A stretch of DNA of 64,000 bases from an uncultured Gammaproteobacteria bacterium (GCA_964610305.1 CAZSVL010000002.1:40522-104521); one strand, 5' to 3'. Positions 12,371-41,893 are shown, counted from the first letter of the stretch. Made by a program: numbers and translations. The notes: generated by a model from the letters alone, not told the origin.

Positions 12371-12376
12371 AAGAGC

Positions 12377-13753: not shown

Positions 13754-13759
13754 CGTATC

Positions 13760-14974: not shown

Positions 14975-14980
14975 GAAGCC

Positions 14981-17041
14981 ATGAGTCTAGCGGTACTTAA
15001 TTCCTATACGCCGCACATAGAGCGCCTTTTAAAGGGCGCGATTTTGATTAATTTGGCAACTCCGTTGATTGTTTTTTTTGATATTTTGCCGTATCCCTTT
15101 GTTACCTCTAAAGTATTTTTTTTGCAGATTCTTATTTCTTTGAGCGCCTTTTTTTATGGACTACTTCTTTTTTTAGAGCCTAAGAAGTATTGGCCGCGCG
15201 TTGGGCTCTTGCATGGCGCTGTTATTTTGTATGGATGTGTGATGCTGCTATCTACTCTCTTTAGTGTAGACTCGGCCAGATCCTTGTGGGCAAATCATAC
15301 GCGCATGCTGGGGAGTTTTGCGATGCTGCATTACGGTATTTTGTTTTGGATAGTGAGTGTGCTCTATGATGAGAAATTTTCTTCTCTTTTAAGGCGTGTG
15401 CTATTAGGGGTAATTTTTGCTGTTGGTGTTTTAGCGCTTTTGGAATGGGCTGGTGTTTTATTTCCCAATAGAGAGTGGCAGCGCATTGGCAGCACCGTGG
15501 GAAGCCCATTTGGCCTTTCTCTTTTAGCGCTTTATGGCGTGGCGCTCAGTATTTTAGAATTTTATAAGAAAAAGAGGTTGTTAGCAGCAGTGCTGAGCAT
15601 TTTTTTTATTGCTCTGGTGTTTTTGACCGGAACGCGAGGAGCTGTTGTTGCAATGGTTGGCGGCGCTTTGTTTGTTGGTTTAGTGTTGGTATTGAAAAAG
15701 TCGTTGTTGAATCTTTCGCAAAAAAAAGCCGCTTTGCTTGTCGGGGCAGTATCACTTCTGTTTGTGGTCGGTCTATTTGGTGGTGTTGCAGTCTCCAAGT
15801 TGCCTGCGTTTGATACGCTCAGTAGTGCCGCAAGCATTGGATCGCGCCTTACGGCATGGGATATATCTGTTAAGGCAGCACTAAGCAAGCCGCTCCTTGG
15901 CTACGGGCCGTTTACTTTTTTGTATGCCTTTAACGAGTTTTATGACCCCGCGGCAATTAGTTTTGCTTTTGATGAAACCTGGTTTGATAATGCCCACAAC
16001 TATTTTTTTGAGCAGCTTAGCAGCATGGGAATGGTAGGATTTTTTGTGTACATAGGCATTTTTGCGCTCGCCCTATTTTATTGTTGGCGATTAGCAAAAG
16101 ACGGCAGGCAATCTTTAGCTTTGGCCTATGCCACTATTGTGGTAATGCACGCGCTTTGGTTGGTTTTTGAGTTTGAAGAAGCCAGTTCACTACTTGTTTT
16201 TGTGATAATTCTAGGCCTTCTTGCCGCATCACAGAAAAAAATGTTATCTGAGAAAAAAGTATCAAAAGCGCTTCCTCTTGTTTTAATGGTTGCCGCTCTG
16301 CTTATGGGACGATCAAGCATACGATCAGTTCAAGCAGCTGCTGCGCACCAGCAGGCACTCAATTATGCGCGCAGCGGAGAGGTGGGGGGATGGTTTGAGG
16401 CGCAAAAAAAAGCGCTCAGCAGTGCCGGACCTTACGCTCACAGTATGAGGCTAGATATGGCGCGTGTATTTTCAGAATTTGAGCTTCCGCCAGACGCATC
16501 TTCTGTGCCGCTTGTTGATGCAGTATTTACTTTTATGCGCTCGCAAATGGCGTTGTCTCAAGAGGATCGCCCTTTGGATCCGTTTGCTTATCTTTTTGAT
16601 GCCGATATTGCCCGCAGAAGGTATACTATATTTAGGGCTACGGCCGATGCTGACAGGGCTCTGCAACTTTATGAAAAAGCGCAAGAAGTCGCGCCGCGTA
16701 GGCCACAGCTTTTCTTAAGTAGTGCCTTTGCCTCTATTGATTTTAAAGAGTTTGATGAGGCAAAAAAGGAAGCGTACGCAGCTTTAGCATTAGCTCCAGA
16801 AGATGAGCGTGTGGCTAAGTTGTTGGCAGATGTTCTAGTGGGGATTTATCAAGACGGTGAGGACAAGGCTCTCTTAGAAGAAGCGCTTGGTTTGTATGAG
16901 CGTGTTTCTATTAAACGTCCACCTGGAACGTACGATGCTTTGTACAAGAGTTGGTCAACGGCGCTGCAGCTAGCCGGACAGCCAGAAAAAGCAGCTGAAA
17001 TGTTAGGCAATATTGATAATGAAAATACTACTCGTCAATAA
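14981..17041 (+). CDS. O-antigen-ligase-like membrane protein with C-terminal TPR-like helical domain
   Basis: About 10 N-terminal TM helices with the Wzy_C block (FLTGTRGAVVAM), then a soluble C-terminal ~280-aa TPR-like repeat region. Confidence 0.6.
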   Translation: MSLAVLNSYTPHIERLLKGAILINLATPLIVFFDILPYPFVTSKVFFLQILISLSAFFYGLLLFLEPKKYWPRVGLLHGAVILYGCVMLLSTLFSVDSARSLWANHTRMLGSFAMLHYGILFWIVSVLYDEKFSSLLRRVLLGVIFAVGVLALLEWAGVLFPNREWQRIGSTVGSPFGLSLLALYGVALSILEFYKKKRLLAAVLSIFFIALVFLTGTRGAVVAMVGGALFVGLVLVLKKSLLNLSQKKAALLVGAVSLLFVVGLFGGVAVSKLPAFDTLSSAASIGSRLTAWDISVKAALSKPLLGYGPFTFLYAFNEFYDPAAISFAFDETWFDNAHNYFFEQLSSMGMVGFFVYIGIFALALFYCWRLAKDGRQSLALAYATIVVMHALWLVFEFEEASSLLVFVIILGLLAASQKKMLSEKKVSKALPLVLMVAALLMGRSSIRSVQAAAAHQQALNYARSGEVGGWFEAQKKALSSAGPYAHSMRLDMARVFSEFELPPDASSVPLVDAVFTFMRSQMALSQEDRPLDPFAYLFDADIARRRYTIFRATADADRALQLYEKAQEVAPRRPQLFLSSAFASIDFKEFDEAKKEAYAALALAPEDERVAKLLADVLVGIYQDGEDKALLEEALGLYERVSIKRPPGTYDALYKSWSTALQLAGQPEKAAEMLGNIDNENTTRQ

Positions 17042-19376
17042 ATTTTGGTATCCACGCGGCGGAGCCGAGCATTATGTTTTGGCGTTGCGTGAGCAGCTAA
17101 AAGCAAAAGGTCACACCGTGATTGAATTTGGGATGCATCATCATTTGAATATAAAAACGCCGTTTGATACATATTTTGTATCAGAATTGGATTTTAAAAA
17201 ACGCGGCGGGATAAAAGATAGTCTGCACAAGCTGATGCGGGTTATCTATTCTCCGCAAGCGCGCAAGAAGTTTGCTCAGCTTTTGGTAGATGAGGCGCCT
17301 GATGTTATTCATATTCATAACATTTATCACCAACTCTCTCCGTCAATTTTGCTTGCTGCTGAGCGTGCGCGGATTCCTGTTGTGATGACGGCCCATGATT
17401 ACAAGATTACCAATCCTAACTATAGAATGTTTCACCGTGGGCAGGTGTGTGAGCATAGTGATCATGGCAGATTTTGGGAGGCGCTCAGATATAGGTGCAT
17501 GGACACCTGGAGCGCCAGCTTTGCAGTTATGGTGGAGAGCTATGTGCATGCTTTTTTGGGTACGTACAGACGAGCCGTTACGCGTATTGTGAGCCCTAGC
17601 AATTTTTTGATTGATTTAGCGGTGAGTCGTGGCGCGCCCAGAAAATGGTTTATCAAAATTCCTACGGGCATTGCTATGCCCGCTATGCCAAAAGAGTTGG
17701 GGCAGCAGGCAGTAGTTTATTTTGGGAGACTCTCTGAAGAAAAAGGATTGGGCGTTTTGCTTGAGGCGGCTAAGATGGCTCGTACCACGCCATTTGTAAT
17801 TGTTGGCAGAGGGCCCATGGAAGCGGCTTTGAGATCTCGCGCGGGAGAGCTTGGATTGCGCAACGTTACTTTTGCGGGTTTTTTGCAGGGTGAGAGTCTG
17901 TGGAAAGTGGTGGCTGGCGCAAAAGCTGTGGTGGTGCCCACCCTTAGTTTTGAGAATTACCCATTGTCTGTGCTTGAGGCTCAGGCTTTGGGCACTATTG
18001 TTATAGCGAGTGCGGTAGGCGGTCTGCCAGAGCAAATAGTTAATGGGGAGACGGGTTTTTTGGTTCCTCCCGGAGATGCCGTAGAGCTAGCTAAAGCGGT
18101 GGAGCGCGCCATGGAAATGGATGAGGATGATCTAGCGCACATGGAGGCGGCAGCGAGAGCGGGAGTGATGCGCGTTAATGGTCATGACGAGCATATAAGC
18201 AGAATAGAGGCTTTATATAAGAGCGTGCAAGATACTGCTGCAGACGATGATAAATCCTTGCGCGTTGCTGTTATTGGGGCTAAAGGGTATCCACCGTCAT
18301 ATGGTGGCGTAGAACAGCACGTAGCGGCTCTAGGGCGCGTTTTTGCAGGGCTGGGGCACAAGGTGGTTATCTATAGTAGGTCATGGTATAGCCAAAAAAA
18401 TCAAAATGGCGATGATCCTGTAATAAGTCGCCGCCTCTGGAGCCCCAAGATAAATGGGCTGGATACACTTTATCATTCGTTTGCCAGTACGCTGTCGGCT
18501 TTGGTGGGAGATTATGATGTGGTGCATTTTCATGGAGTAGGCCCTGCTGTTTTTGCCTTTTTTGTGCGTTTGTTTTCAAAAGCTAAGGTGATAGTAACTG
18601 TTCATTCGCTTAACAGAATGCATCCTCAGTGGGGATTTTTTGCTCGGCTGTGGCTTCGTTTTGGAGAATGGGCCGCCGCAATATTTGCCCACGAGACTAT
18701 TGTTGTCTCCAGAGATTTAAGATCATATTTTAGAGGAAAACATAAAGCTGCCCGGATCCACTTTATTCCTAATGGCGTGGCGGTGAGAGAGAAAAAACCA
18801 GCGGCATCTTTGCTTGGTAGATGGGGCTTGCAGGAAGCTTCTTATGTTGTGGTGGTGGCGCGATTGGTAAAATCAAAACGTGTAGATGAAATTTTGCAGG
18901 CGTGGCGGTCCCTGCGAGCGGCAGATAGAAAGGATTGGAAGCTTGTCATTGTGGGAGATCAAAGTTTTTCATCTGATTATGTTGACGAGCTTAAAGATTT
19001 GGCGGGGAAAGATAAAAGTATTATTTTTACGGGCTGGCAGGAGGGCGAGGCACTGCAGGCCTTAATTGCTCATGCCCAAGCCTTGGTTTCTGCGAGCGCT
19101 TCTGAAGGGTTGCCTCTGACGCTGCTAGAAGCAAGTGCTTATGGGGTGGGCGCACTAGTCTCAGATATTGCTCCTCATAGAGAGATAGTTAAAGTAGACG
19201 CCGCGCGTTTTGCTGTGGGAGATGTGCCAGCGCTTGGCGCAGCCCTCAAACGGCTTTTAACTGACCCTGGATGGTTTGAGCAACTAGGAGAGCAAAATAA
19301 AAAACTCGTGGCGAGCGAGTATCAATGGGAGTCGGTAGCAGACAAAACGCTTAGTTTATACTATGATAGGCTTTAA
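17013..19376 (+). CDS. tandem two-domain GT4 glycosyltransferase (GT4-GT4 fusion)
   Basis: Two complete GT4 units (...ENYPLSVLEAQALGTIVIASAVGGLPE... and ...EGLPLTLLEASAYGVGALVSDIAPHRE...). Confidence 0.65.
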   Translation: MIMKILLVNKFWYPRGGAEHYVLALREQLKAKGHTVIEFGMHHHLNIKTPFDTYFVSELDFKKRGGIKDSLHKLMRVIYSPQARKKFAQLLVDEAPDVIHIHNIYHQLSPSILLAAERARIPVVMTAHDYKITNPNYRMFHRGQVCEHSDHGRFWEALRYRCMDTWSASFAVMVESYVHAFLGTYRRAVTRIVSPSNFLIDLAVSRGAPRKWFIKIPTGIAMPAMPKELGQQAVVYFGRLSEEKGLGVLLEAAKMARTTPFVIVGRGPMEAALRSRAGELGLRNVTFAGFLQGESLWKVVAGAKAVVVPTLSFENYPLSVLEAQALGTIVIASAVGGLPEQIVNGETGFLVPPGDAVELAKAVERAMEMDEDDLAHMEAAARAGVMRVNGHDEHISRIEALYKSVQDTAADDDKSLRVAVIGAKGYPPSYGGVEQHVAALGRVFAGLGHKVVIYSRSWYSQKNQNGDDPVISRRLWSPKINGLDTLYHSFASTLSALVGDYDVVHFHGVGPAVFAFFVRLFSKAKVIVTVHSLNRMHPQWGFFARLWLRFGEWAAAIFAHETIVVSRDLRSYFRGKHKAARIHFIPNGVAVREKKPAASLLGRWGLQEASYVVVVARLVKSKRVDEILQAWRSLRAADRKDWKLVIVGDQSFSSDYVDELKDLAGKDKSIIFTGWQEGEALQALIAHAQALVSASASEGLPLTLLEASAYGVGALVSDIAPHREIVKVDAARFAVGDVPALGAALKRLLTDPGWFEQLGEQNKKLVASEYQWESVADKTLSLYYDRL

Positions 19377-19675
19377 TCTTCTGGAGATTCAGAGAGGTCA
19401 TCTTCTTTCTTAGATTTTGCTGTTTTACTGCTTGGACTATAGAGTCTGCCGGCAATATTCCACCGGTCTACATACTGACCGATGCCTTTTTTTTGCGATT
19501 TTTTACTAATGGTGCTTTTTTGAGACCATTTAACAAGGCTTTCAAAGTTTATTTTGTATCGCCCCGCTACAACGATGTAGGAGAGCTCATCATCCAAAAT
19601 AGCACGTCTTATGGTTTGCTGACTCACTCCAAAGAGTTTTGCAGCTTCTGAGACTGATACGCGGATGATATTCAT
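19373..19675 (-). CDS. helix-turn-helix DNA-binding protein, excisionase/MerR-type HTH family
   Basis: VSEAAKLFGVSQQTIRRAILDDEL is a typical HTH_17/Xis-family motif. Basic C-terminal tail. Confidence 0.6.
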   Translation of the reverse strand: MNIIRVSVSEAAKLFGVSQQTIRRAILDDELSYIVVAGRYKINFESLVKWSQKSTISKKSQKKGIGQYVDRWNIAGRLYSPSSKTAKSKKEDDLSESPED

Positions 19676-19680
19676 AGCTG

Positions 19681-19704
19681 TTTGTATAGACTAGTGTATA
19701 CAAA
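19681..19704. promoter_or_regulatory. 24-bp near-palindromic operator TTTGTATA-N8-TATACAAA, copy 1, abutting the HTH gene start
   Basis: Read directly. It begins 6 nt upstream of the HTH ATG. Confidence 0.55.
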
Positions 19705-19793
19705 CAGCGTATATTACTAGCGTTTTTGTGTCAATTTGGACCATCAATGAATATTAGATTGAAACTGTGGATAAGTTGACCTAAATAGGCCTC

Positions 19794-19817
19794 TTTGTAT
19801 ACACTAGTCTATACAAA
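19794..19817. promoter_or_regulatory. second copy of the 24-bp operator, the exact reverse complement of copy 1
   Basis: TTTGTATACACTAGTCTATACAAA. The two copies are about 110 bp apart centre to centre. Confidence 0.55.
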
Positions 19818-19958
19818 TAGAGCTGGTAACAGGTAATGAGGGGGTGAGTATTAGTACATTTTCTTTTTTCTCTTGTTGCCCGTTATCGGGCACCTGTTTC
19901 CAATAAGTTATCCCCACCCGTTATCAAAAGCCGTGATTAGCTACAGCTATACCCAAGG

Positions 19959-20510
19959 ATGAAAAATAAGGCTCACGATCACTTGCTGCTTTTCAGGCTT
20001 CAGACCAAACAAGATAAACAAGCCTTTACGCAGCTCTACGATAAATACTACGCCGATATTCATCGGTTTGTTTTGTTTAAGGTGCCGACCGCAGAGATAG
20101 CCGACGATATAGTGGCGCAGGTGTTTGAAGGGCTTTGGATGTATGTGGTACAAAGAAAGCGTATCATTCACTTTAGGGCGCTGATGTATCGCATAGCAAG
20201 AAATAGCGTTGCTGAGCATTATCGCAGGGAAGGTAAAACTATGGATGTAGCCATAGAGTACGTGGAATTTGATGTAGCGCAGGATAATGACGGGTTGCTG
20301 GGAGTAGCGCGAGAAGATTTGTTGGCCGCGTTTGTGCAGCTTACCGAGGATCAAGCGGAGCTCATACAACTAAGATATATAGAAGGATTGCCCATAAAGG
20401 TGGTGGCAGAAGTAGTGGGAAAGAGCCGTGGCGCGGTGAGTGTTAGCTTGGGGAGGGCGCGGGCTAGTCTCAAACGCATTTTGGACGCAGATGTCCACAA
20501 GAAAAAATAA
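19959..20510 (+). CDS. ECF-type RNA polymerase sigma factor (sigma-70 regions 2 and 4)
   Basis: Region 2 (FTQLYDKYYADIHRFVLFKV...) and region 4 HTH (GLPIKVVAEVVGKSRGAVSVSLGRAR). Confidence 0.75.
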   Translation: MKNKAHDHLLLFRLQTKQDKQAFTQLYDKYYADIHRFVLFKVPTAEIADDIVAQVFEGLWMYVVQRKRIIHFRALMYRIARNSVAEHYRREGKTMDVAIEYVEFDVAQDNDGLLGVAREDLLAAFVQLTEDQAELIQLRYIEGLPIKVVAEVVGKSRGAVSVSLGRARASLKRILDADVHKKK

Positions 20511-20531
20511 CTATCGCAAGGTATACTGACT

Positions 20532-21539
20532 ATGGCGATTAGCCAAAAACAATTAAAGGATTCTCTTGCTGCATTGGGCAGTGATTTTTCTGCAGTTGAT
20601 GAAAAGAGAAGTAAGCAAACGCGAGAGCGTGTGTTGGCTTTTATGGATAACAATCCTATTGCCACTGCGCCAAGCGCATACGAAAGATTGAGATTGGCAG
20701 GAAAGTATATAATGCCGTCAGGCGTCTGGCATTATGCCTTGCAGCCTATAATGGTGGTGGTGCTTGCCTTTACGCTGGTTACCGGCGGTTGGGTGACATC
20801 GGTATCTGCCGCTAGTGGGAGTCTGCCAGGAGATGCGCTTTATACGGTAAAATTGGTTTCGGAAAAAACGCAGCTGCAACTTGCATACTGGTCTGATGAT
20901 CCGCTGGTGGTAACAGGGCTGCAGGTATCTTTTGCAAAAAGAAGGATAGATGAAATAAAAGCGGTGAGCGAGCTCTCGCCGGGAGACAAGGAGGAGCGAA
21001 TAGACAAAGCAGTGAGAGGTTTTAAAAAAGGAATCGCGGCAGTGCGCGAATCATTAGAGACAGCGGCCGATAATAAGCCTGAGCAGGTTGCGGCGATCGC
21101 CAGAAAAATACAGGATCAGGGCACTGATTTGGTAGAAGCCATAGAGCAGGCGGAACAAGCGTTGCCTCAAGATGTGGCTCAAGAGCTTGCCAGTGCAAAA
21201 GAAGTTGTGGAAGATGCAACGGATCAGGCGGTAGAGGTTATTGTGGAGAGTCGGCAACAGGGAGATCAGTTGGTTTCTTCAGACGATATAGCCAGTGTAA
21301 TTGTTGGAAAGCTGGATCGCGCTACGGTAAGCGCAGAGCCAAAAGAAGCTCTCTTGAGCGAGAAAGTTGTGCAAAAGCATCTAAAAGACGGAGAATTTGA
21401 GCAAGCGCTGGACGAGGTAAAACGCATGCGCGCTTTGGTAAAAGAGCAAACTGCGCAACAAGAAGAGCAGGAGCCAAGCTTGCCAGGTGTGCTTATAAGG
21501 GTGATAGAGAACGTAACAAGCACTATAATAGGCGAATAA
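20532..21539 (+). CDS. putative anti-sigma factor (single-pass membrane protein with acidic coiled-coil extracytoplasmic domain)
   Basis: Immediately downstream of the ECF sigma. Cytoplasmic N-terminus, one TM (IMVVVLAFTLVTGGW), then LYTVKL... Confidence 0.5.
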   Translation: MAISQKQLKDSLAALGSDFSAVDEKRSKQTRERVLAFMDNNPIATAPSAYERLRLAGKYIMPSGVWHYALQPIMVVVLAFTLVTGGWVTSVSAASGSLPGDALYTVKLVSEKTQLQLAYWSDDPLVVTGLQVSFAKRRIDEIKAVSELSPGDKEERIDKAVRGFKKGIAAVRESLETAADNKPEQVAAIARKIQDQGTDLVEAIEQAEQALPQDVAQELASAKEVVEDATDQAVEVIVESRQQGDQLVSSDDIASVIVGKLDRATVSAEPKEALLSEKVVQKHLKDGEFEQALDEVKRMRALVKEQTAQQEEQEPSLPGVLIRVIENVTSTIIGE

Positions 21540-21561
21540 CCATACGTTTAGTTAATTATTA

Positions 21562-21735
21562 TTAATCATTTCTCGTCCCTTGTGGGGAGGATTCAGCCGA
21601 TTGGCGGGCTGTATCCTCCTCTGATAAGGGGAGTAAGGAAAAGTAGTTGTGCATTAAGGTCGAGCTTCCATAAGGGAGTGTGCACGGCATTGTAACTGAT
21701 CTTGGTTGCGAGAAATGATCATTGCCAAGATCGGT
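21562..21735 (+). promoter_or_regulatory. structured 5' leader with long-range and local alternative pairings
   Basis: TCATTTCTCG (21566-75) pairs with CGAGAAATGA (21709-18). The latter also sits in the loop of a local hairpin GATCTTGG..CCAAGATC. Internal hairpin GGAGGATTCAGCC..GGCTGTATCCTCC. Confidence 0.35.
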
Positions 21736-21758
21736 ATCTAAAAAAGTCTAAATAACTT

Positions 21759-24700
21759 ATGACTACAGCAATAGCATATTCTAGAAAAGCATTTACGGGT
21801 GTTGTTGTTGCGTTGACGGTACTTTGGTCAATTGGTGCGGCCGCACTGATTTCTCCACTAGTAGCACAAAGCGCAGTCGCTCTAGCAGATCTCTCAGACG
21901 GAGATTTGATCATGACTGACGGCGCTGCAGCAGGGGCTACGGTATACGTGCACAACGACGGTAAAAAATACCCATTCCCTAACGCCAAGATCTACGCATC
22001 ATGGTACGGGGACGACTTTTCAAGCGTGATGCGCATTTCTGCGGAAGACATGGGATCCCTTGCATGGGGCTCCAACATGCTCTACCGCCCAGGCTCACGA
22101 TTGATTAAAGTTCCAGACGATCCAAAGGTGTACGCTGTTTTGCCAGGAGGCACAGTAGCGTGGGTCAAGGATGAAGCAACAGCACAGAAGTTTTACGGAG
22201 ACGCATGGGCAGGTCGTGTAGACGACTTGTTGGCATCTCTATTTGTAGCTGACTACACCAATGATCCAAACATGGATCTAACCGCTGATTCAAACTACCC
22301 TGACGGTACACTTATTAAAGTAGATGATGGCGAAGTAGCTGCATCTGCTTTGATGTACTACTACATTGACGGTGGTATGAAGCGCGCAGTGGGAGACGAC
22401 GCAATGGGACAGTTCAACTTGGACTACGCCATTGAAGTTTCCTCTGACGACGCAGCAGCATTTGACGACGGCGACGCTATGGGATCAGGAGAATTCCTTA
22501 ACCCAGTAGCCGTACAGGAAGGTACAACCACTCCTGGAGCAGACGCACCAGACGAGGTGGTAGCAGACGGAGACCTTTCCTTTAGTCTAGCCGCAGACAG
22601 CCCAACTGCTCGTCTTCTTGACGGGACAGGACTCAACGCAGTGTTGAAGGTGGCTGTAAGTGGTGAGGGTAACATCGACGAGCTAACCTTTAAGAAGGTT
22701 GGAACAACCGCTAACACCAACATTACTGGTATGCGCGTTGTTGACAGTTCTGGCGCACGTCTTGGTAACGTAGTTTCTTCAATCAATGAGGATGACACGG
22801 TTACCTTTACAGGACTTGACCACGACGTTGATGGAAGCGACTCACTTGAATTGCAAGTGGATCTAAACACCTCAGCAGGCGCTTCTGACGCACGCTTTGA
22901 GTTGACTGGTGTTGACTCTGGCGCAAGCGTATCAGGACTTCCTGTTGCAGGATTCTTGCTAGACGTTAAAGACGGTTCAACTGTTGTAACCACGGTCACC
23001 TTTGACCTTGATGGTCCAGCGGATAACTCCAGTGTTCAGCTTGGTAATGAGATTGAAATATTCAACTTCACACTTCGCGACACCGGAAGTAAAGAAAAGT
23101 CAACTTTTGACGGTATAACTCTTTACAACAACGGTTCTGTTACTGATGAAGACGTAGAGGACTACAAGCTTGTAGCTCCAAACGGCGACATCTTGGCAAC
23201 CGTACAGCAAGACGGCAAGTGGGTAGTATTTGACGGCTTGGACTACGAGCTGATCAAGGGTGCTACCAAGTCATTTAAGATCAAGGCTACACCTAAGACA
23301 GGTGCAACCAGGACTATTGACTTGCAGCTCCAAAATGACTACGACTTGAAAGTAATGGGCAATACTTCTGCTCACTACATCCTAGCTACCGCTGACGGTA
23401 GCGGAACTAACGACTCAACCTTCCCTGTAGGTGACGCTTCTGGCTACACCGACATGACTTTGGCTTCAGGTTCTCTAACCTGGAACAAGTCTGGAGAGAA
23501 CCCAACCTCTAACTACGCCGTAGGAGAGGCTGACGTAATCTTGGGAAGCTTTGACGTTAAAGCAACTGGTGAAGATATTGAAATCAGAAAAGTAAGCTTT
23601 GCCGTTCTTGAAAGCACTTCTGGTTCAACTTCAACTTCACTTGACGGAAGCGTCTTTATTAAGGCTGACGGCCAGACACTCTACAGCGCAGCATTTGCAC
23701 GTAGCATGTTTACCGGAACCAACACAGACGTAACTGAGTCAAGTAAGTCACTAAGCACCTTCCTAACCGTTCCTGCGGGAGAAACCAAACGTATTGACAT
23801 TGTTGGTACTATTGGATCCGCTGCAGCTTCAACGGACAGCTACGGTGCCGTGTTTAATGTTGCTCAGAACAAGCGCCTAACTACGGGCGACTTGCAGACT
23901 CCAACAGCTAGCATTGTTAACGCAGCAGTACGCTCTGTGAAAGCAGCAGCACTGACGGTTAACAACATTACCATGGCCGCTTCTGGAACCTACAAGATTG
24001 TTGCAGGAACCAACGGCGCGCTTGTTGGTAAGTATGTGCTTGACGCCAGCTCTGGTGGTGAGGACGTACGCGTTAACAGCATTGTAGTAAGCCAGGGTAA
24101 CGGTGGTTCCGCCGCAAGCGTAACTGACTGGAGCAACTGGCGCCTCTACAGAGTTGAAGCTGATGGATCAGAGACTGCTCTGGACACCAGCAACGATACT
24201 AACACGGGTGCTGCTAACATGACCTTTACCTTGATCACTCCTGAAGTGATTGGTAAGTCAGACGTAGACGGAGTTACCTACCACTTGCGTGCTAACCTTG
24301 CTTCCGCCGCTGGCGCAAGCGAGACCGCCGTATTTGTTGTGGGTAATGAAGGAAGCGCAGCTGTGGGAGATGTTACTGGAAACTCAGTGACGGAGAGCGT
24401 ACTTAATGGTACTTCAACGGGAAGCACCTCACTTGGAAGCACGGTAATTATTACCGCTTCTGGTGGAGCAATTAAGATTGCTGTTGATTCCGCAAACGCA
24501 CCGGTGAAGAACTCTCTGGTTAACATTGGTACTACCAATTACAACCTGGGTGCCTTTACTATCAAGGCAGAAGATGAAGATCAGAAAGTTACTGACCTTG
24601 AGGTGAGCTTGTTTGGAACAGCAAGTCTAAACGATGTTAGAAACGTCCGCCTATACTTGGATGACGCTTCAACACCACTTGCTCAGGTAACACAGCTAAC

Positions 24701-25529
24701 CACGGGTGGAGACAATGCTGCTACCGGATATCACACATGGACTTCTGCTAGCGAGTTGTTCAGAATTGAAGCTGGACAGACACGCCGCGTGAAATTCCTT
24801 GCAGACATTGCAGGAGCTGGTACTGCTAAGCTTGGTAATGATGTTCGCCTTGAGATCCGCGACGCAAGTCACGTATCCTCAACCGGTGTCAGCACCAACA
24901 CAGCATCAACCAAGACCGTGCTTAACACCAACTCAATCACTCACACCATTCAGCCATTTACCGTAACGGTAGCAGAGGCAAGCCCTGCATATCCTGCTTC
25001 TAACTTGGAGAAGGACGTGTCAACGGGATCCCTCTTGGCGCAGTTTAAGATCACTAACTCTGGTTCTGCTACAATCACTACCACGCAGTTTAAGATCTTT
25101 AACAACGGTGCATGTACGTTTGATTCAGACGGTGCAACCACCTGTAACTCTACCGGTGTTCAGTACTCACTGAAGACTTCAGCTGAGAACGCAAACTCCA
25201 CAACCAACTTGGTATCTGGAGAGGACACTGAAGAGAGCTCTGGTGTAATTACCTTCTCTGGTGGAGGACTTGCATCATCAGCTAACATTGTAATTGCCGC
25301 AGGACGCTACAGAACCTTTGGTGTGTATGTGTCTGGTACTAACGATGGATTTGCTAAGGGTGCTAGCTGGCAGCTCTCTGTTGCAACTGAAGGTGATATG
25401 ACCTTTAGCGTGCAAGATGAGAACTTGGGTTATGACGGTAACGTTGACGGTAATCAGGACGACTCTAACACGGGTCTAAAGATGACTGGTCAGCCTAGCT
25501 TGCCATCTGTCACAGACAGCGTAACCTAA
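21759..25529 (+). CDS. giant secreted surface protein (1256 aa; acidic, S/T/G/D/V-rich tandem beta-sandwich repeats), putative S-layer or adhesin
   Basis: Signal peptide (VVVALTVLWSIGAAALISPLVAQSAVA), repetitive Ig-like composition, strong terminator after the stop. Confidence 0.65.
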   Translation: MTTAIAYSRKAFTGVVVALTVLWSIGAAALISPLVAQSAVALADLSDGDLIMTDGAAAGATVYVHNDGKKYPFPNAKIYASWYGDDFSSVMRISAEDMGSLAWGSNMLYRPGSRLIKVPDDPKVYAVLPGGTVAWVKDEATAQKFYGDAWAGRVDDLLASLFVADYTNDPNMDLTADSNYPDGTLIKVDDGEVAASALMYYYIDGGMKRAVGDDAMGQFNLDYAIEVSSDDAAAFDDGDAMGSGEFLNPVAVQEGTTTPGADAPDEVVADGDLSFSLAADSPTARLLDGTGLNAVLKVAVSGEGNIDELTFKKVGTTANTNITGMRVVDSSGARLGNVVSSINEDDTVTFTGLDHDVDGSDSLELQVDLNTSAGASDARFELTGVDSGASVSGLPVAGFLLDVKDGSTVVTTVTFDLDGPADNSSVQLGNEIEIFNFTLRDTGSKEKSTFDGITLYNNGSVTDEDVEDYKLVAPNGDILATVQQDGKWVVFDGLDYELIKGATKSFKIKATPKTGATRTIDLQLQNDYDLKVMGNTSAHYILATADGSGTNDSTFPVGDASGYTDMTLASGSLTWNKSGENPTSNYAVGEADVILGSFDVKATGEDIEIRKVSFAVLESTSGSTSTSLDGSVFIKADGQTLYSAAFARSMFTGTNTDVTESSKSLSTFLTVPAGETKRIDIVGTIGSAAASTDSYGAVFNVAQNKRLTTGDLQTPTASIVNAAVRSVKAAALTVNNITMAASGTYKIVAGTNGALVGKYVLDASSGGEDVRVNSIVVSQGNGGSAASVTDWSNWRLYRVEADGSETALDTSNDTNTGAANMTFTLITPEVIGKSDVDGVTYHLRANLASAAGASETAVFVVGNEGSAAVGDVTGNSVTESVLNGTSTGSTSLGSTVIITASGGAIKIAVDSANAPVKNSLVNIGTTNYNLGAFTIKAEDEDQKVTDLEVSLFGTASLNDVRNVRLYLDDASTPLAQVTQLTTGGDNAATGYHTWTSASELFRIEAGQTRRVKFLADIAGAGTAKLGNDVRLEIRDASHVSSTGVSTNTASTKTVLNTNSITHTIQPFTVTVAEASPAYPASNLEKDVSTGSLLAQFKITNSGSATITTTQFKIFNNGACTFDSDGATTCNSTGVQYSLKTSAENANSTTNLVSGEDTEESSGVITFSGGGLASSANIVIAAGRYRTFGVYVSGTNDGFAKGASWQLSVATEGDMTFSVQDENLGYDGNVDGNQDDSNTGLKMTGQPSLPSVTDSVT

Positions 25530-25800: not shown

Positions 25801-25856
25801 AAGGGGCTCCTTGTAGTATGGGAGTAGTTCTTAAACAAATAAAAAAGGAGAGAACC

Positions 25857-27998
25857 ATGAAGACGCCCCTATTGGGTATCGCGGTGCTCTTGAGCGCAAG
25901 CGGATGTTTGCAGTTTGAAGACAGGGCTTTTGTGTGCGAGAGTGATGATGACTGCGCGCAGGGAGTATGCGCCAGAGCATCACTGGATGACACGCAGACC
26001 TACTGCTTGGTTAACCCACCTGATTTATCTGAAAGCCAAGAAGGTGAAGGGGAGAAGCCTTCTGAGGGCGAAGGTGATAATCCAGAGCCTCAAGAGGGTG
26101 AAGGCGAGACGCCAAACGGTGAATCTGGAGGCGAGGGTGAGGGTGAGGAGATTGACCCGCCGGATGGTGAAGGAGAGGGCGAGCACGTCATTGGCGAAGG
26201 TGAAGGCGAGCTTGATTCTGGCGAAGGTGAGGGAGAAGATTCGTCTGGAGAGGGAGAAGGCGAGGTAATTGATCCCGGCGAAGGTGAAGGAGAGTTTGAT
26301 CTCGGCGAGGGAGAAGGCGAAGGAGAGGGCGAGGGCGAGCCTGATTGCCTTTTGGATGATCAGTGTATTGCTCATGATCCTTGTACCATAGGCCGTTGTC
26401 TTGCGGGAGAGTGTCGTATTGTTTTAGCAGATGATAACACTCCGTGCAGCGATGACAATGCCTGCACAGCGGCAGACACGTGTCAGGCTGGCAATTGCAT
26501 GCCGGGCGATGCTCTGGATTGTAGTGATTTTGAAGATCAGTGCAATGAGGGAGCGTGCGATCCTGATTCAGAGCAGGAGAATCCCTGCTTTAGCGAGCCG
26601 CGTCTCTCAGACGAACCGCTCGCCTGTCAGAGTGGGCTTTTTTGCGCGGTGGACGGCGTTTGCCTTGATGGTATTTGTGAGGAGCAGCAAAGAGATTGTT
26701 CTGAGTTTAATGGAGCGTGCGCAACGGGCGTGTGCTCTGAAGATCTAGGGCGCTGCCTTGCAGATGGCGCTCCTCATGAGGAAGATTTATGTGATTTGGA
26801 GCAGCCGGCGCAGTGTCATCATGGTGCATGTCAAAATGGGGCCTGCGCGGTAGTCCGGGACCAGAACGGTAGTCAGTGCAGCGATGGAATGTTGTGCACG
26901 GGCGCTGATAGTTGCGAGGACGGCGTTTGCGAAGGGATTGCCATCTCATGCGGTCATCTAAGTGATCAGTGCAATGAGGGAGTTTGCAACTCTGATACGG
27001 GCGCGTGTGAAGCGCGCGCCGTGGATGATGAGACTCAGTGCAATGACGGACTTTTTTGCACGGTGCTGGACCAGTGCAGCGGCGGCATCTGCTCAGGCGC
27101 TGCGCGCGATTGTAGCGTCGCAGATGAGATCTGCTCTATTGGCGTTTGTTCTGAGGAGCAGTCCGAGTGTGTTGCGGATGACGCTTTAGCCAATGCTACG
27201 CCGTGCGACGATCTGGATGTGTGCACGGGCGAGGGAAGCTGCCAAGATGGCGCTTGTCAGCCCGGAGAGGCGCTTAATTGCGACCATGCGGCTGATCAGT
27301 GCAATGCGGCGGTTTGCAATCCTGAATCGCTAGAGGATGATCCGTGTGAAGCTGTTCCTGTAGATGATGACACGCCTTGTACTGACGGCGATGATCTGTG
27401 CACGGTTGAAGACAGCTGCCAGCAAGGTGTCTGCGAAAGCGGAGACGCTCCTGACCGGGATGAAGATGAGCACATAGATGACCGGTGTGGTGGCGACGAC
27501 TGTGATGATGGCGATCAGACCGTTTATCCCGATGCTCCGGAGCTTTGCGACGGAGTTGCTAATAGCTGTGGTGGCCAGGTAGACGTGTTTTATGAGGTGC
27601 CGACACCTTCATGGTCTGAGTGGGGTCCTGTGGATGGTTTTGCGCGTGTTTGGACAGAGGCTGCCCGCGCTGGAAAGGTGTGTGTAGAGACAATTCTAGA
27701 GAATGCACATGCACGCTCTTCTCAAATTGGATTGCCAGAGAATTGTTCTCTTGAGATTTGCGTTGAAATTCAAAACGGTGATGAGGGAGCTGCCATACGT
27801 TTTGATGTTGTTGACTATGGACAAGTATGGCTTCTGGAAGAAGAGGATGGGGAGTTTTGTCAAAGTCTTCCGGACGATTTGCCGAATCCGCTAGAAGTGG
27901 AAATAATTTCGGTTGGTAATGGTGAACGATATATGTGCAACTTCAAAATCCGCTCCACGCTCTCTGCAGAAGGTGAGGGAGAGGGTGAAGGTCTGTAA
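25857..27998 (+). CDS. Cys-rich GE-repeat secreted lipoprotein (more than 15 ~40-aa Cys modules; C-terminal [10 protein letters not shown] motif)
   Basis: AAGGAG RBS before the ATG. Signal ...LLSASGC. Long (GEGE)n acidic linker. Repeated C-x-D-x-N-x-C-T-x-x-D-x-C-x-x-G-x-C modules. Confidence 0.7.
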
Positions 27999-28042: not shown

Positions 28043-28071
28043 TTGACAAAAATGAAAAAGAGTGGTACGGT
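28043..28071 (+). promoter_or_regulatory. promoter TTGACA-17-TGgTACGGT
   Basis: Perfect -35 and extended -10 TG. The -10 hexamer is weak. Confidence 0.45.
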
Positions 28072-28126
28072 TTGGTCAGGGGAAAAGCAAAAAAACGCTA
28101 AAACAAAAGAAAAAAAAGGAGGGGTC

Positions 28127-29719
28127 ATGCGAGTACTCACGGGGACCCTGGCAGCTTTGCTGCTGTGTTCAACCAATGCATTAGCTCAGGATGATCAAGA
28201 TGAGTCCTCAGAGTCACTACAAGAGAGTGAAAGCTCTGACGATGAGCCGCAGAAGATTGGTGTGTTGGTTTTGCCAGCCAACAAGAAGCTTAGAGCCGTG
28301 GCAATGGATCTAGAAGAGCTTTTAGCCATGTCATTTAGCGATAAGACGCCTTTTGCTGTCCTAGATGGTGAACAATTGCGCAAAATTGTTGCGCCAGAGC
28401 AGCCGTTTAAAAAGCAAAGCAAGGCCGTAGAGCAGTGCCTAAAGGATCCAGGCTGCATTGCGCCGCTCATGGTCCAAGAAGACATGATTTTCTGGACCGT
28501 AAGCTACGTGGGTAAGAGTGGTAAAGGTTTGCGTCTGCGGCTCAACCTGTTTGATCTGGATGGTAACGTGATTGCTACCCATGATTCTGGGCGCGTAACG
28601 CAAGAGCAGCTTTACGAGGGCACCTTTTTGACAGCAGAAAAGCTGATTGGAAAGCACCGTGGAACGCTCATTGTAAAGACCCCTAGCGATGCGCATGTCA
28701 TCATCAATGATGATAAGCATCCCAGTGGCGAGCATACGTTGTCATTTCTTGAGCCCGGGCCGTATAAGATTGTGGTAAGCAGCAAAGGGAAGAGACCCTT
28801 TGAGCAAACCGTAGAGCTGAGGGCTTCGGCCCTAGAGACAGTAGAGGTTAAAGCTACCGATCTTAAACCTTGGGTAAGTAAGGCCGTGGCTCAGAAACGC
28901 GATCAAGGCATTGCTTATTTCCGCAAGGACCTCTTTGAGATGGCGGCAAGTACGCTTGCAGAGGCGCGAGCCCTGCCGGGCGGGGATCAGGATAGTAAGT
29001 TGCTTTTCTATCTGGCGCGTAGCTACGTAGATCTCAATGAGCTTGCAAAAGCGTTTGAGTCCGCAGAAGCGGCTACCAAAACGCATGATCCAGAAGGTAA
29101 GTTTGGAAAGCGTGCTGCAGAGTTGTTGAAAAATCTGCGCAAATCATACGGAAGCGTCATCTTTAAGCGTTTGGCTAGCTCCACTGTAAAACAGGGCTAC
29201 ATCTATCTTGATGACATTGCCGGGCTCATTGGAAAGGAAAAGAAAGAGCAGTTTAGAAAACTGCGGAATCGTCTGAAGAGCCAAGCGGTAGATTTGAGCA
29301 CAAGTGGGTACGTATACTTTTTGCCCTACGGCCAGTATCGCGCCAATGGGGTTCCCTTTACGGTAGAGCAGGGAAGTCTGCCAGAGGTAGAGATTCTGCT
29401 AGAGGCCACGCCTCGTGAGCAGGAGTCAAAGGGTCTTTCTGTGCCGGTCATGGTAGCCTCTGGGGCTGGCGCTGCGCTGCTCACGGCATTTGGCATGCAT
29501 TTGATGGCTGTTTCAGAAGCTGAGGATTATGAAACAGCAGGAAATCAAAAGAAGGCTTTTGAGGCGCGCGATTGTGCAGAGTTTTATCAGAAAACAGCCT
29601 TTGTTGGCTACGGTTTAGCCGCCGTCGCTGGAGGTGTTGCTGGATGGCTCTGGTGGCAGGACCAAAGCAGAAGCGTTGTTGCGCTTCCTGGTCAGCTGAT
29701 TTTGCAGGGATCATTTTAG
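28127..29719 (+). CDS. secreted PEGA-domain protein with TPR-like helical region and C-terminal TM segment
   Basis: AAAGGAGGGG RBS before the ATG. Signal ...STNALAQ. PEGA-like block GTLIVKTPSDAHVIINDD...YKIVVSSKGKRPFEQTVEL. Confidence 0.6.
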   Translation: MRVLTGTLAALLLCSTNALAQDDQDESSESLQESESSDDEPQKIGVLVLPANKKLRAVAMDLEELLAMSFSDKTPFAVLDGEQLRKIVAPEQPFKKQSKAVEQCLKDPGCIAPLMVQEDMIFWTVSYVGKSGKGLRLRLNLFDLDGNVIATHDSGRVTQEQLYEGTFLTAEKLIGKHRGTLIVKTPSDAHVIINDDKHPSGEHTLSFLEPGPYKIVVSSKGKRPFEQTVELRASALETVEVKATDLKPWVSKAVAQKRDQGIAYFRKDLFEMAASTLAEARALPGGDQDSKLLFYLARSYVDLNELAKAFESAEAATKTHDPEGKFGKRAAELLKNLRKSYGSVIFKRLASSTVKQGYIYLDDIAGLIGKEKKEQFRKLRNRLKSQAVDLSTSGYVYFLPYGQYRANGVPFTVEQGSLPEVEILLEATPREQESKGLSVPVMVASGAGAALLTAFGMHLMAVSEAEDYETAGNQKKAFEARDCAEFYQKTAFVGYGLAAVAGGVAGWLWWQDQSRSVVALPGQLILQGSF

Positions 29720-29776
29720 TAAAGTAGTCGTCTGTTTTGTGCAGGCGGCTTTTTGTTTTGGTCGAGCTTTGCTACT

Positions 29777-32038
29777 ATGGGAGCCATGAGTAGAAATCTA
29801 CCAATAAAACAGCGGATAGTACAAGCTTTACTGCTCCTTGTGTTGGCTACGCCACTTGTCATGTTGCCAAGTACATTTTATTTCCCTTTTTCTACCACAA
29901 AGGCTTGGTTTTTTAGAGCTGTCATTCTTGCGACCCTTTTTGCTTGTGTATTTTTTTCTAAAGACTTGCGCGCCATCAAGCCAAAAAATAATCTGGTGGC
30001 ATTTGCCGTTTTATTTTTTTTGTTAATTTACGCTGTAACCACCGCTACGAGCATAGATGTGCATAGATCTTTCTGGGGGAATTACGAGAGGATGATGGGT
30101 CTTGTTACTATGATATATTTTGTGGTTTATTTCTTTTTATTGAGAACCTTCTTTTTTGATAAACAATCGTGGCGCTGGTTTTGGGGTATTTTTGGTGGTG
30201 TTGGTATTGTGGTTTTTTTGCTTGGTTTGTATCAAAGCTACAATCCTGACTTTTTGATTGGTAGGCAATTTGGTGGAAACCACGGATACCGTGAAAACAT
30301 TACGCTCGGCAATCCGCTTTATGTTGGGCAATATAGCGTGTATCTCCTTTTTTTGGGCTTGTATTGGCTTAAAGATACATTTGATAGATGGCGCATAGAT
30401 AAATCACGTGTTAAAGAGCTGTGGTTTTGGGGGGCCGCAGTGTTCTCTAGTCTTGGTTTGTTATATTTGTCTCAAACAAGAAGTTCGTTTGTTGGACTAG
30501 TAATGGCGGTTTTTTGTGGCTGCGCTTTGATGGCTTTGCTTCATCAAAAAAAGAGGGATAGGCGCATCTATTTGATTGCTTTTGTTCTTATGAGTTTGGT
30601 GGCTGCTTTTATTTTAAGTCCTCTGAGTCAATCGGTGACCGCTCATCTGGGAAAAGTAAATCGGTTTACCGACTTAAATTTTTTGTCCTCTTCAAACATC
30701 AATCGTATACATGCATGGAAGACGGCCGCAACAGCATGGAAAGACCGCGCTTTTCTAGGTTGGGGTCCTGGCACTTTTTCTATTGCTTATAATCAGTATT
30801 TTGATAGTAGGCGATTAATTAAACGAGACTTTACCGACACGTGGTTTGACAGCTCTCATAATCAATACCTAGACGCGCTATCAGAGCAAGGTGTTTTGGG
30901 GTTTGTTGCGCTGCTTTTTTTGTATGCAAGTGTGCTGATAGGACTTATGGTTGCTTGCCGAAGAGGACATATCAAGCTCATTGATATGATGATGCTTGTG
31001 GGACTGTTGATAACGGTGGGTGTTACTAATATATTTGTTTTTGAACAAGTTACTTCATATTTCAGTCTTTTTTCTTTTTTGGCATTTGTTAGTTTTATTA
31101 TAGATGGACAAAAAAATGACTTCGTTCTTAATCGTTCCTCAGTGCCGATCCGCGGGGCACTTCTTTACGGATCAGTTATAATTTTGTCAGTGGTCTCGTT
31201 TTACACCGTGATAATACCTGCGCGTGCAAACGCTACGGTACTCTCCTCACTTCTGCAAGTGGTACGCACAGGATCTGTTGAAGACCTCTTGCTCTCAGCG
31301 GAGCAGGCAACGCGTAGCGGCTTTGCTCACCATGAGCATAACTATTCAAAATTAGCAGAGCTTTTACTCAAGACGGCCTACATACCGCAGGAGCATCTGC
31401 AGCCCATGATTTCGCTTTACCGCTTCACTATTGAAGGGTTGCAAGAGCAAATGAAAAAACACCCAAGAGATGTATCTTTGCCTATGCTGATAGCGCCCGT
31501 CTTGCATGATGCTTATAGGGTGGCGCCGGCTCTATTTCCGCGTGGCAGAGAGCGCGGCGATCAATATTTTGTTAAGGCTTCTGAGCTTTCTCCCAATCGG
31601 CAAGAGATATTGGCCTATTGGGGTAATCAGATTATGCAGTCAGGCAATTTAAAGGATGCGCGGGAGCCGTATGTAAGAGCGCTGGCGATGGCTCCAAGCT
31701 CTCCAATTTCATTTAATTTGTATGCGGATTATGTAATGGCAATAGAAGAAAATCCCAGCAAGGCACTTCATTTATATGAGTGGGGGATTAAAGAACGTTT
31801 GGTAGACATAAACAGTAAACGCTTGGTGGACATGGTGCGAGCTGTTCAGAGCGCTCATGGTAAGCAGCAGGCTTTAGAGCGGCTTGATGTGTTGATCTAT
31901 TGCTTTACACATGGTGGTGATAGGTCGGACTGTGGCGTTTATGGGCGCACAGACCCTGTTTATGGGCGCATAGATCCGATTCCTTCTTTTATGGGCCCGC
32001 TTTACGACCTAAGAGAAGAATTAGTGAGCAGCACTTGA
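29777..32038 (+). CDS. O-antigen-ligase-like membrane protein with C-terminal TPR-like domain (paralog 1 of 3 tandem)
   Basis: Wzy_C-type core (LSQTRSSFVGLVMAV) plus a helical C-terminal domain. The start is ambiguous (29753-29786). Confidence 0.6.
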   Translation: MGAMSRNLPIKQRIVQALLLLVLATPLVMLPSTFYFPFSTTKAWFFRAVILATLFACVFFSKDLRAIKPKNNLVAFAVLFFLLIYAVTTATSIDVHRSFWGNYERMMGLVTMIYFVVYFFLLRTFFFDKQSWRWFWGIFGGVGIVVFLLGLYQSYNPDFLIGRQFGGNHGYRENITLGNPLYVGQYSVYLLFLGLYWLKDTFDRWRIDKSRVKELWFWGAAVFSSLGLLYLSQTRSSFVGLVMAVFCGCALMALLHQKKRDRRIYLIAFVLMSLVAAFILSPLSQSVTAHLGKVNRFTDLNFLSSSNINRIHAWKTAATAWKDRAFLGWGPGTFSIAYNQYFDSRRLIKRDFTDTWFDSSHNQYLDALSEQGVLGFVALLFLYASVLIGLMVACRRGHIKLIDMMMLVGLLITVGVTNIFVFEQVTSYFSLFSFLAFVSFIIDGQKNDFVLNRSSVPIRGALLYGSVIILSVVSFYTVIIPARANATVLSSLLQVVRTGSVEDLLLSAEQATRSGFAHHEHNYSKLAELLLKTAYIPQEHLQPMISLYRFTIEGLQEQMKKHPRDVSLPMLIAPVLHDAYRVAPALFPRGRERGDQYFVKASELSPNRQEILAYWGNQIMQSGNLKDAREPYVRALAMAPSSPISFNLYADYVMAIEENPSKALHLYEWGIKERLVDINSKRLVDMVRAVQSAHGKQQALERLDVLIYCFTHGGDRSDCGVYGRTDPVYGRIDPIPSFMGPLYDLREELVSST

Positions 32039-32079
32039 TATTTTTGTAGGGGCGCGCTACTATAGCAGCCACTGCTTTT

Positions 32080-41890: not shown

Positions 41891-41893
41891 ATT

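Follow-up and report, generated by a model that had tools for sequence, protein, structure and literature searches.

A conserved cassette of a BldN-like sigma factor, a DUF5667 membrane protein and a giant surface protein, with a structured leader RNA, in Patescibacteria

The DNA analysed here, referred to as the window, is a stretch of 64,000 nucleotides from an assembly catalogued under an uncultured Gammaproteobacteria bacterium (GCA_964610305.1, CAZSVL010000002.1:40522-104521), and our subject is a run of three plus-strand genes within it. The first (19959-20510) encodes a sigma factor of the extracytoplasmic function (ECF) type, 183 aa long, with matches to Sigma70_r2, Sigma70_r4_2 and TIGR02937; the second (20532-21539) encodes a membrane protein of 335 aa that matches the Pfam family DUF5667; and the third (21759-25529) encodes a giant secreted surface protein of 1256 aa, 130 kDa and isoelectric point (pI) 4.25. 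These open reading frames (ORFs) and their strand are as given in an initial annotation of this DNA. The 219 nt between the second and third genes (21540-21758, plus strand) are predicted by RNA folding to form a structured leader of the giant gene, either a 5′ untranslated region or an intercistronic RNA. Homologues of the giant protein belong to the Patescibacteria, for example Candidatus Uhrbacteria, and comparison of the loci that encode them provides strong evidence for a dedicated sigma/membrane-protein/coat-protein cassette.

In all seven neighbourhood look-ups the order sigma, DUF5667, giant gene was retained, with giant proteins of 26-60 % identity; a divergent gene of the HTH_17 family lay upstream in six of these (locus L007 is without it), and Wzy_C and/or glycosyltransferase genes were close by in six. 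A first locus set was then assembled by scanning one genome per species for the N-terminal domain of the giant protein, giving 79 loci that were scored with hidden Markov models (HMMs) of the four proteins. Sixty giant-type loci have at least 2.6 kb of upstream DNA, and in 59 of them both the sigma and the DUF5667 genes are found upstream on the same strand, the single exception being an assembly gap; short paralogues that have the N-terminal domain alone are without a DUF5667 gene. The initial annotation had made its proposal depend on giant-protein homologues being linked to ECF pairs in relatives, and had treated the three genes as a functional unit; the linkage is kept, and the conservation of the arrangement across related loci speaks for the unit. 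A reciprocal set of 80 metagenome loci, obtained by a search with the DUF5667 segment, has the giant gene directly 3′ of the DUF5667 gene in 35 of the 41 loci with enough downstream DNA, and the sigma gene 5′ of it in 64 of 66. The six loci that have no giant gene are distant sigma/DUF5667 pairs with low HMM scores, five of them with a G+C content of 0.55-0.67, from which it would follow that the pair is the older unit and that the giant gene joined it in the Patescibacteria lineage. It might be supposed that the adjacency is a matter of chance or a lineage-specific accident, and that the giant ORF is simply one of many large adhesin-like genes, but the synteny counts in both directions, which extend over several candidate phyla and proteins of 22-30 % identity, refute this, and a covarying RNA element fixed between the genes also speaks against it; we regard such an accident as scarcely credible.

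The sigma protein matches Sigma70_r2 (29.7 bits) and Sigma70_r4_2 (41.7 bits) in Pfam, and the ECF superfamily model TIGR02937 at 77.6 bits against a cut-off of 42.9. Regions 2 and 4 are present, region 3 and region 1.1 are absent and the protein is only 183 aa long, as expected of the ECF (group IV) class. The top NCBIfam model is TIGR02952, the BldN family, with a score of 98.1 bits that does not reach the equivalog cut-off of 206 bits. The top PDB match is 6dxo_A (E = 3.7e-12), which we take to be the BldN-RsbN complex. Judged by its sequence, the protein is a BldN-like ECF sigma factor. The initial annotation had suggested envelope-stress control; this finds no support, the nearest characterized relative of the sigma factor being the developmental BldN and not a stress sigma factor.

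In the window membrane protein the DUF5667 match (PF18915; 30.7 bits, gathering threshold 27) covers residues 96-213, and 24 of 25 family members have it. A single hydrophobic segment at about residues 65-94 separates a short cytoplasmic part, about 64 aa in the window, from an ectodomain that is long, helical and apolipophorin-like and that in relatives ends in S/T-rich tails. The family conserves an N-terminal cytoplasmic helix (LxxLRxx..PDxxWxxxTRxxLL), the transmembrane segment and the sequence SLPGDxLYxxK at the start of the ectodomain. From the sigma stop codon to the DUF5667 start the gap is 21 nt in the window, and in 44 of 59 loci the two genes overlap or lie no more than 15 nt apart. 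Because of this coupling to the sigma gene, the membrane topology and the precedent of RsbN, the DUF5667 protein is by analogy most likely an anti-sigma factor. Searches of Pfam and NCBIfam found no known anti-sigma domain in it (class I ASD/zf-HC2, RskA-type or RsbN-type), and PDB sequence and profile searches for a solved relative gave coiled-coil noise only. These negative results, together with the short cytoplasmic part, the long helical ectodomain and a linkage to the giant gene as tight as that to the sigma gene, could suggest a membrane-anchored partner in the assembly, export or anchoring of the giant protein, in which case the sigma factor would be soluble and regulated otherwise, for example by an HTH_17 repressor alone. 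We think this improbable, since sigma and anti-sigma genes typically overlap or are closely spaced in this way, the helix at the cytoplasmic N-terminus ranks second among the conserved parts of the protein, the more distant sigma/DUF5667 pairs occur with no giant gene, which makes the pair the older unit, and RsbN was likewise without a recognizable anti-sigma domain before its structure was available (PMC6101532).

In the giant protein a signal peptide takes up residues 1 to about 39, and the sole hydrophobic segment spans residues 10-45, with AQSA at 36-39. It is acidic and rich in S, T, A and G (S+T, 21 %; D, 8.7 %; pI 4.25), with two Cys residues. Comparison with Pfam and NCBIfam found no family, including SLH, CWB2 or any S-layer family, and sequence and profile searches of the PDB returned nothing useful. 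An AlphaFold model made with 50 homologues (mean predicted local distance difference test score, pLDDT, 77.6) has an N-terminal alpha/beta domain at residues ~49-253 (21903-22517), followed from residue ~273 (22575) by about nine beta-sandwich domains. When the whole protein was compared with the PDB by Foldseek, only generic multi-immunoglobulin chains were matched, with template-modelling scores below 0.2. The N-terminal domain is PlyCB-like and putatively binds the cell wall. The signal peptide, the acidic, S/T-rich and near-Cys-free composition and the surrounding Wzy_C, glycosyltransferase and PMT genes lead us to predict that this is probably a wall-anchored, O-glycosylated coat or S-layer-like protein, although it could be an adhesin. 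Its designation as a surface protein in the initial annotation agrees with our reading of it as secreted and probably wall-anchored.

The 219 nt spacer folds into three hairpins at -79.5 kcal/mol (energy z = -5.0 relative to shuffled sequences). Hairpin 1 (GGGGAGGAU...AUCCUCC; 21576-21631, plus strand) has no U-run after it and appears to correspond to a ...GGCGGGGGA.../AUCCUCGCC block of relatives. Next comes the conserved RNA element (21646-21688, plus strand), which consists of a P1 stem (GUUGUGCAU/GUGCACGGC), a bulge on the 5′ side containing the invariant AAGGUCGA at 21656-21663, and a P2 hairpin (GCUUCC-AUAA-GGGAGU) stacked on the 3′ arm of P1. Hairpin 3 (21695-21733, plus strand) is predicted just 5′ of the giant start codon; we note that a tiny ORF of eight codons (ATG ATC ATT GCC AAG ATC GGT ATC TAA, 21716-21742) lies inside it. 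Neither a terminator nor an anti-Shine-Dalgarno pairing is evident in the window leader, and no family of Rfam 15 matches this leader (E up to 5) or those of six relatives (E up to 1).

The sequence AAGGTCG(A/G) is present in all leaders, and the conserved element was found in 64 of 64 loci that include the upstream gene. Under constrained folding 60 of 62 distinct leaders adopt one architecture, P1, bulge and P2, in which the bulge is made of one to six variable bases plus the invariant octamer and P2 usually sits directly on the 3′ arm of P1. Alignment by MAFFT misaligned the 3′ half of the element, and structural and model-based alignments were used. A covariance model of the edited 35-column core, with the window left out (R2), found 35 leaders in 834 kb, all of them at the right position and on the right strand, plus two weak outliers; a model rebuilt from the real hits of R2 (R3) found 29 leaders and one likely false hit among independent metagenome loci. 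The alignments are fitted to the models, which favours the structure, and with that proviso 95.7 % of cells were paired in the first alignment, against 42-57 % in slid controls, all 10 of 10 pairs were compensatory and the covariation score was 0.77, against at most 0.16 in controls, while in the replicate 93.4 % of cells were paired, again with 10 of 10 compensatory pairs, and the covariation score was 0.93, that of the controls not exceeding 0.20. Given this margin and its replication, no reading other than a real RNA structure is reasonable. Within the group the window copy scores weakly: it reached 12.7 bits with R3 at 21648-21684 in a local unfiltered search, and was not recovered by R2 or R3 in the large searches.

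A further conserved leader domain is seen in many lineages of relatives 60-120 nt 5′ of AAGGTCGA (for example L087:4670-4765 and L006:5784-5880), where it has the form CAGGG-hairpin-CCTGACGGGCGGGGGA ... TTGCCCGCTCG ... ATCCTCGCC. Alternative pairings are possible within this domain; GGCGGGGGA could pair either with CCCGCTC or with ATCCTCGCC, an arrangement suggestive of a switch. A reduced form, GGGGAGGAT...TGGCGGGC...ATCCTCC, is present in the window at 21584-21622, and RNAalifold applied to the extended leader gave a weak consensus only. We also considered AAGGTCGA as a promoter -10 sequence; it was ruled out, since the two arms of P1 covary and the 5′ arm precedes it. In some relatives the intergenic regions of the cassette contain hairpins that are long and near-perfect, or GCTGGAAGCTGGTAGCT-type repeats in tandem (L007:5694-5770, the L036 leader and L008:4028-4120).

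As is expected of a riboswitch, the structure is conserved, covarying and placed in a 5′ leader. The function that we favour is either processing with stabilization of the 5′ end or the binding of a factor, in both cases uncoupling coat mRNA levels from those of the regulators. A larger claim, which as a whole we think doubtful and offer only tentatively, is that the leader represents a new class of cis-regulatory RNA in which a P1 / AAGGUCGA bulge / P2 core gates the main surface protein of Patescibacteria. In many lineages this core is joined by a larger upstream domain (CAGGG-hairpin-CCUGACGGGCGGGGGA ... AUCCUCGCC). The RNA would respond to a metabolite or be bound by a protein, for example a precursor of wall or glycan, the HTH_17 protein or the coat protein itself, and an ECF promoter concealed within the sigma coding sequence would act alongside it, the two making up a dedicated circuit that keeps the coat in homeostasis throughout the phylum. 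In the synthetic TetR-binding RNA aptamer 5-1.2 the internal loop of a stem contains AGAAAGGUCGAU (PMC3466194). The octamer at 21656-21663 of the window is the same and has a similar setting, which is probably a coincidence. By analogy one might entertain the idea that a helix-turn-helix protein, such as the neighbouring HTH_17 protein, binds the leader RNA.

Upstream of the sigma gene, and divergent from it, the window encodes a DNA-binding protein of the HTH_17 / excisionase family (19373-19675, minus strand; 100 aa; HTH_17, 33 bits; TIGR01764, 31.4 bits), and 41 of 60 related loci have a homologue in the same divergent position. Between the two genes a repeat search found two copies of a 30 nt palindrome, CTGTTTGTATAGACTAGTGTATACAAACAG, which resemble operator sites (unstranded; 19678-19707 and 19791-19820); palindromes were located in this interval in 23 of 42 related loci with a crude detector. 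The second copy overlaps the -10 sequence of a sigma70-like promoter of the sigma gene (TTGACC-18-TACACT, 19776-19805, plus strand; a consensus match only, 9/12). The HTH_17 protein is likely to regulate transcription of the cassette.

The relatives share a promoter-like motif of a different kind. Exact copies of TGTAAC-N15-17-CGT[ACT][TA] on the coding strand number 56 around the sigma gene and the sigma-DUF5667 gap, 12 of them just upstream of the sigma gene, 34 within the sigma coding sequence (about 290-400 nt from the start) and 10 between the sigma and DUF5667 genes, and only three further copies occur elsewhere in the 1.58 Mb scanned. The motif is carried by 47 of 59 loci and is always upstream of the DUF5667 gene; it was never found in the giant-gene leaders of relatives. 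It resembles the published BldN site, CGTAAC-N16-CGTTGA (PMC2375139). Where the promoter is ahead of the sigma gene (for example L028:2779-2805, L042:2913-2939 and L076:2919-2945), its end is about 6 nt from the sigma start codon, so that the sigma mRNA would be leaderless. Examples of the internal placement are L006:4397-4424, L019:2804-2831 and L087:3283-3310, where TGTAAC-N17-CGTCT falls in the part of the sigma coding sequence for the linker between sigma2 and sigma4. Among 28 distinct sites within coding sequence, the variable codon preceding the motif always ends in T, valine is always encoded by GTA (20 % gene-wide), the next-to-last codon is always NCG and serine is TCT in 26 of 28. 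This constraint on synonymous positions indicates that the DNA motif itself is selected within the sigma coding sequence, and a promoter at that place would drive the downstream genes and not a full-length sigma mRNA.

The sigma gene of the window has no internal ECF-type promoter. Two weak candidates on the plus strand, GGTAAC-N16-AGTAT (19825-19851) and TGTTTC-N18-CGTTAT (19895-19924), score below every family site with a position weight matrix (PWM), and in the closest relatives TGTACT-N16-CGTTAC and TGTAAC-N16-CGGTAT immediately precede the start of the sigma gene. The initial annotation had pointed to the leader at 21540-21758 as the place to look for ECF -35 and -10 sequences, but none is there, and in relatives the ECF-type promoter is upstream of the membrane-protein gene. 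The sequence CGTAAC at 21511-21516 has no CGT at the right spacing, and the leader is absent from the top PWM sites.

For the transcription of the giant gene, sigma70-type sites were defined as TTGnnn-N16-18-TAnnnT with at least 8 of 12 matches. They occur in 35 of 59 sigma upstream regions, against 2 of 57 leaders and 1 of 59 length-matched coding controls, and a hairpin plus T-run follows the DUF5667 stop codon in at most 2 of 62 loci. The initial annotation had reported no terminator ahead of the giant gene, and a consensus scan of the plus strand at 21540-21758 indeed finds no hairpin-plus-T-run. No promoter and no terminator being detectable between the DUF5667 gene and the giant gene, the latter is most simply the distal gene of a sigma-dependent transcript; there is moderate evidence, drawn from the arrangement and from these motif counts, that it is most likely transcribed from the ECF-type promoter, and possibly also from the housekeeping promoter of the sigma gene.

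Several points, most of them from the window, weigh against this. A sigma70-like site with 10 of 12 matches (GTGATA-17-TATAAT, 21501-21529) is located in the last codons of the DUF5667 gene, and a strong hairpin without a U-run (dG about -27) stands past the DUF5667 stop codon of the window, where it should be kept in mind that terminators in these organisms may have no need of U-runs. A PWM scan of the window found no ECF promoter in the range of the family anywhere (best score 10.7, training minimum 12.7), and the link from sigma factor to transcript is weakest in the window itself. Finally, a major coat protein would have to be expressed at a very high level, and genes that lie distal to an anti-sigma gene do not usually reach one. 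The GTGATA-17-TATAAT site was rejected as a conserved promoter, TATAAT being Thr-Ile-Ile codons and absent from the closest relatives. Sigma-linked control of the giant gene, as the initial annotation had it, therefore stands in part: co-transcription is the most economical reading, but the ECF promoter is not recognizable in the window, where it appears degenerate and to which we infer that the promoter logic of the relatives can be transferred.

Were the giant gene to have an unrecognized promoter of its own in the leader, for example in the conserved GCCCGCUCG...(A)AUCCUCGCC block just 5′ of P1, the sigma/DUF5667 pair would be linked to it in some other way; the DUF5667 ectodomain may then monitor the coat or the wall, with the giant protein as an input to the pathway, or the sigma regulon may be located elsewhere. 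The length of the leaders (75-720 nt from stop codon to motif), the conserved sequence blocks 5′ of P1, the strong hairpins that about half of the loci have past the stop codon of the membrane-protein gene, the lack of an ECF motif directly preceding the giant gene and the sigma70-like site of the window would all suit this explanation, and U-less hairpins might terminate transcription, or promoters of an unusual kind might be present in the leader. We nevertheless judge it unlikely, if deserving of serious attention. Leaders have no more sigma70-type sites than coding DNA, where such sites are rare, whereas upstream of the sigma gene in the same genomes they are common; the two arms of P1 covary, so that transcription must begin upstream of P1; the conserved upstream blocks can pair with one another, which is the behaviour of RNA rather than of promoter hexamers; the TATAAT of the window is not kept in relatives; and the ECF motif has no other target within 5 kb on either side of the match in every locus fetched. 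Transcription of the giant gene as the distal member of the sigma-dependent transcript thus remains our preferred reading.

The following scheme presumes co-transcription, anti-sigma activity of the DUF5667 protein, a role for the leader RNA and a coat or S-layer role for the giant protein. The sigma gene would be transcribed from its housekeeping-type promoter, gated by the HTH_17 protein, and free sigma factor would fire the TGTAAC-N15-17-CGTCT promoter, which is always upstream of the membrane-protein gene. The transcript would continue through the leader into the giant gene, making the coat protein the main output of the sigma factor, and the presence of the anti-sigma gene on the same transcript would provide negative feedback. 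After transcription the leader RNA, with its P1 / AAGGUCGA bulge / P2 core, would act through processing and 5′-end stabilization or through the binding of a factor, and the distal coat mRNA could thereby accumulate far above the regulator mRNA. Our best explanation as a whole, to which we give somewhat better than even credence, is that the window has one copy of a cassette that a large branch of the Patescibacteria (Uhr-, Falkow- and Magasanik-bacteria and relatives) has conserved and is made up of a divergent HTH_17 gene with palindromic operators, a BldN-like ECF sigma factor, a DUF5667 protein, a structured leader RNA and the giant protein.

The cassette is embedded in a large glycosylation island, which contains five Wzy_C proteins, several glycosyltransferases of the GT4 and GT2 families, a methyltransferase fusion and a GDP-mannose dehydratase/epimerase. 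The upstream part (12335-19376) has two Wzy_C genes (12335-13753 and 14981-17041), a GT4 gene (13760-14974) and a double GT4 gene (17013-19376), and the downstream part (29753-43918) has three Wzy_C genes, GT2/GT4, a GT4 plus methyltransferase gene and GDP-mannose dehydratase/epimerase; all are on the plus strand. We note that the five Wzy_C paralogues (O-antigen ligase / O-oligosaccharyltransferase-type) fall within 32 kb, several of them TPR-tailed, and are accompanied by fused double glycosyltransferases; this concentration suggests elaborate glycosylation of protein or wall. Two ORFs, 25818-27998 (726 aa) and 10341-12239 (632 aa), have a local G+C content of 0.54-0.56 as against about 0.46 and encode Cys-rich repeat proteins with long acidic Gly-Glu runs. 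The first has no Pfam match and the second matches TSP_3 and the MopE metal-binding motif; both are probably further secreted surface proteins. Between the first of these genes and the Wzy_C genes is a gene (28043-29719) for a protein of 558 aa with a match to the PEGA domain (22 bits), an N-terminus resembling a signal peptide and a hydrophobic segment towards its C-terminus. Elsewhere in the window a tmRNA gene is found at 3098-3498 on the minus strand (Rfam RF00023, 81 bits).

The closest known system is BldN-RsbN-chaplins of Streptomyces, and the cassette is a variant of the theme in which an ECF sigma factor controls a surface coat. In Streptomyces, rsbN is a direct target of BldN, and BldN drives the chaplin and rodlin coat genes (PMC6101532). 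The two systems are alike in having a BldN-like sigma factor (TIGR02952 and 6dxo_A are the top matches), a putative GTAAC-N16/17-CGT promoter, read from relatives, comparable to CGTAAC-N16-CGTTGA, and a single-pass partner with a cytoplasmic N-terminus and a large ectodomain, the gene for which lies behind a sigma-type promoter. A further likeness is a proteinaceous surface coat as output (PMC6101532), which is presumed for the cassette. They differ in that the cassette sigma factor scores 98 bits against a BldN family cut-off of 206, and that similarity to RsbN could not be detected in its DUF5667 partner. Its presumed target is a single neighbouring gene, for a protein of 130 kDa, without a sigma-type promoter of its own, whereas in Streptomyces the targets are small amyloid genes scattered over the genome, every one of which has a BldN promoter. 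Moreover, most relatives have the promoter inside the coding sequence of the sigma gene, and a conserved structured RNA stands between regulators and target.

S-layer proteins of Gram-positive bacteria are held to the wall by modules such as SLH (Bacillus Sap/EA1) and CWB2 (Clostridioides SlpA), the slpA gene of Lactobacillus has a long, structured and stabilizing 5′ untranslated region, and known S-layer genes are usually expressed from strong housekeeping promoters and are not situated behind an ECF sigma/anti-sigma pair. The giant protein resembles these proteins in its signal peptide, its acidic, S/T/A/G-rich and near-Cys-free composition, and its combination of a conserved, repeat-built terminal domain, putatively of wall-binding-like fold, with a variable beta-rich body, and its gene resembles theirs in the adjacent glycosylation genes and the long structured leader. 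It departs from them in lacking any sequence relation to SLH, CWB2 or S-layer families, and in that its gene follows an ECF pair. In the SigI/RsgI systems of cellulolytic clostridia a single-pass anti-sigma factor senses an extracellular polymer with its ectodomain, and the output is a set of very large secreted surface proteins. The cassette likewise places an alternative sigma factor beside a single-pass membrane partner, the presumed anti-sigma factor, and a very large predicted surface protein. However, the SigI family is not ECF or BldN-like, RsgI has recognizable N-terminal and carbohydrate-binding domains, and the targets have SigI promoters of their own. As in cis-regulatory families of Rfam, the leader element, which belongs to a single gene family and lies in its 5′ leader, combines a short stem that has a conserved bulge on one side with a second hairpin, a format common among small riboswitches and protein-binding leaders.

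Literature searches on DUF5667, on a link between S-layers and sigma factors in Patescibacteria and on ECF sigma factors in Parcubacteria found nothing relevant, and S-layer surveys mention Patescibacteria, or the Candidate Phyla Radiation, merely in passing. In the literature searched, the phylum-wide linkage of the pair to a single giant gene, the promoter within the sigma coding sequence and the structured leader RNA, as we read them from sequence comparison, appear undescribed. A large share of bacterial diversity belongs to the Patescibacteria (Candidate Phyla Radiation), which are almost all uncultured; they live attached to other cells, and few regulators are encoded in their tiny genomes. 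It is their surface that meets the host. Three candidates emerge from the cassette: a specific and widespread coat protein that has a putative wall anchor and lies in a glycosylation island; a dedicated sigma circuit of BldN-like type, whose promoter motif is defined and often falls inside the sigma gene; and a new structured RNA whose eight-base bulge is invariant. All three can serve as markers for locating the coat gene in new genomes. By analogy with Streptomyces, the finding suggests that an ECF sigma factor wired to a surface coat may be an old solution among monoderm bacteria.

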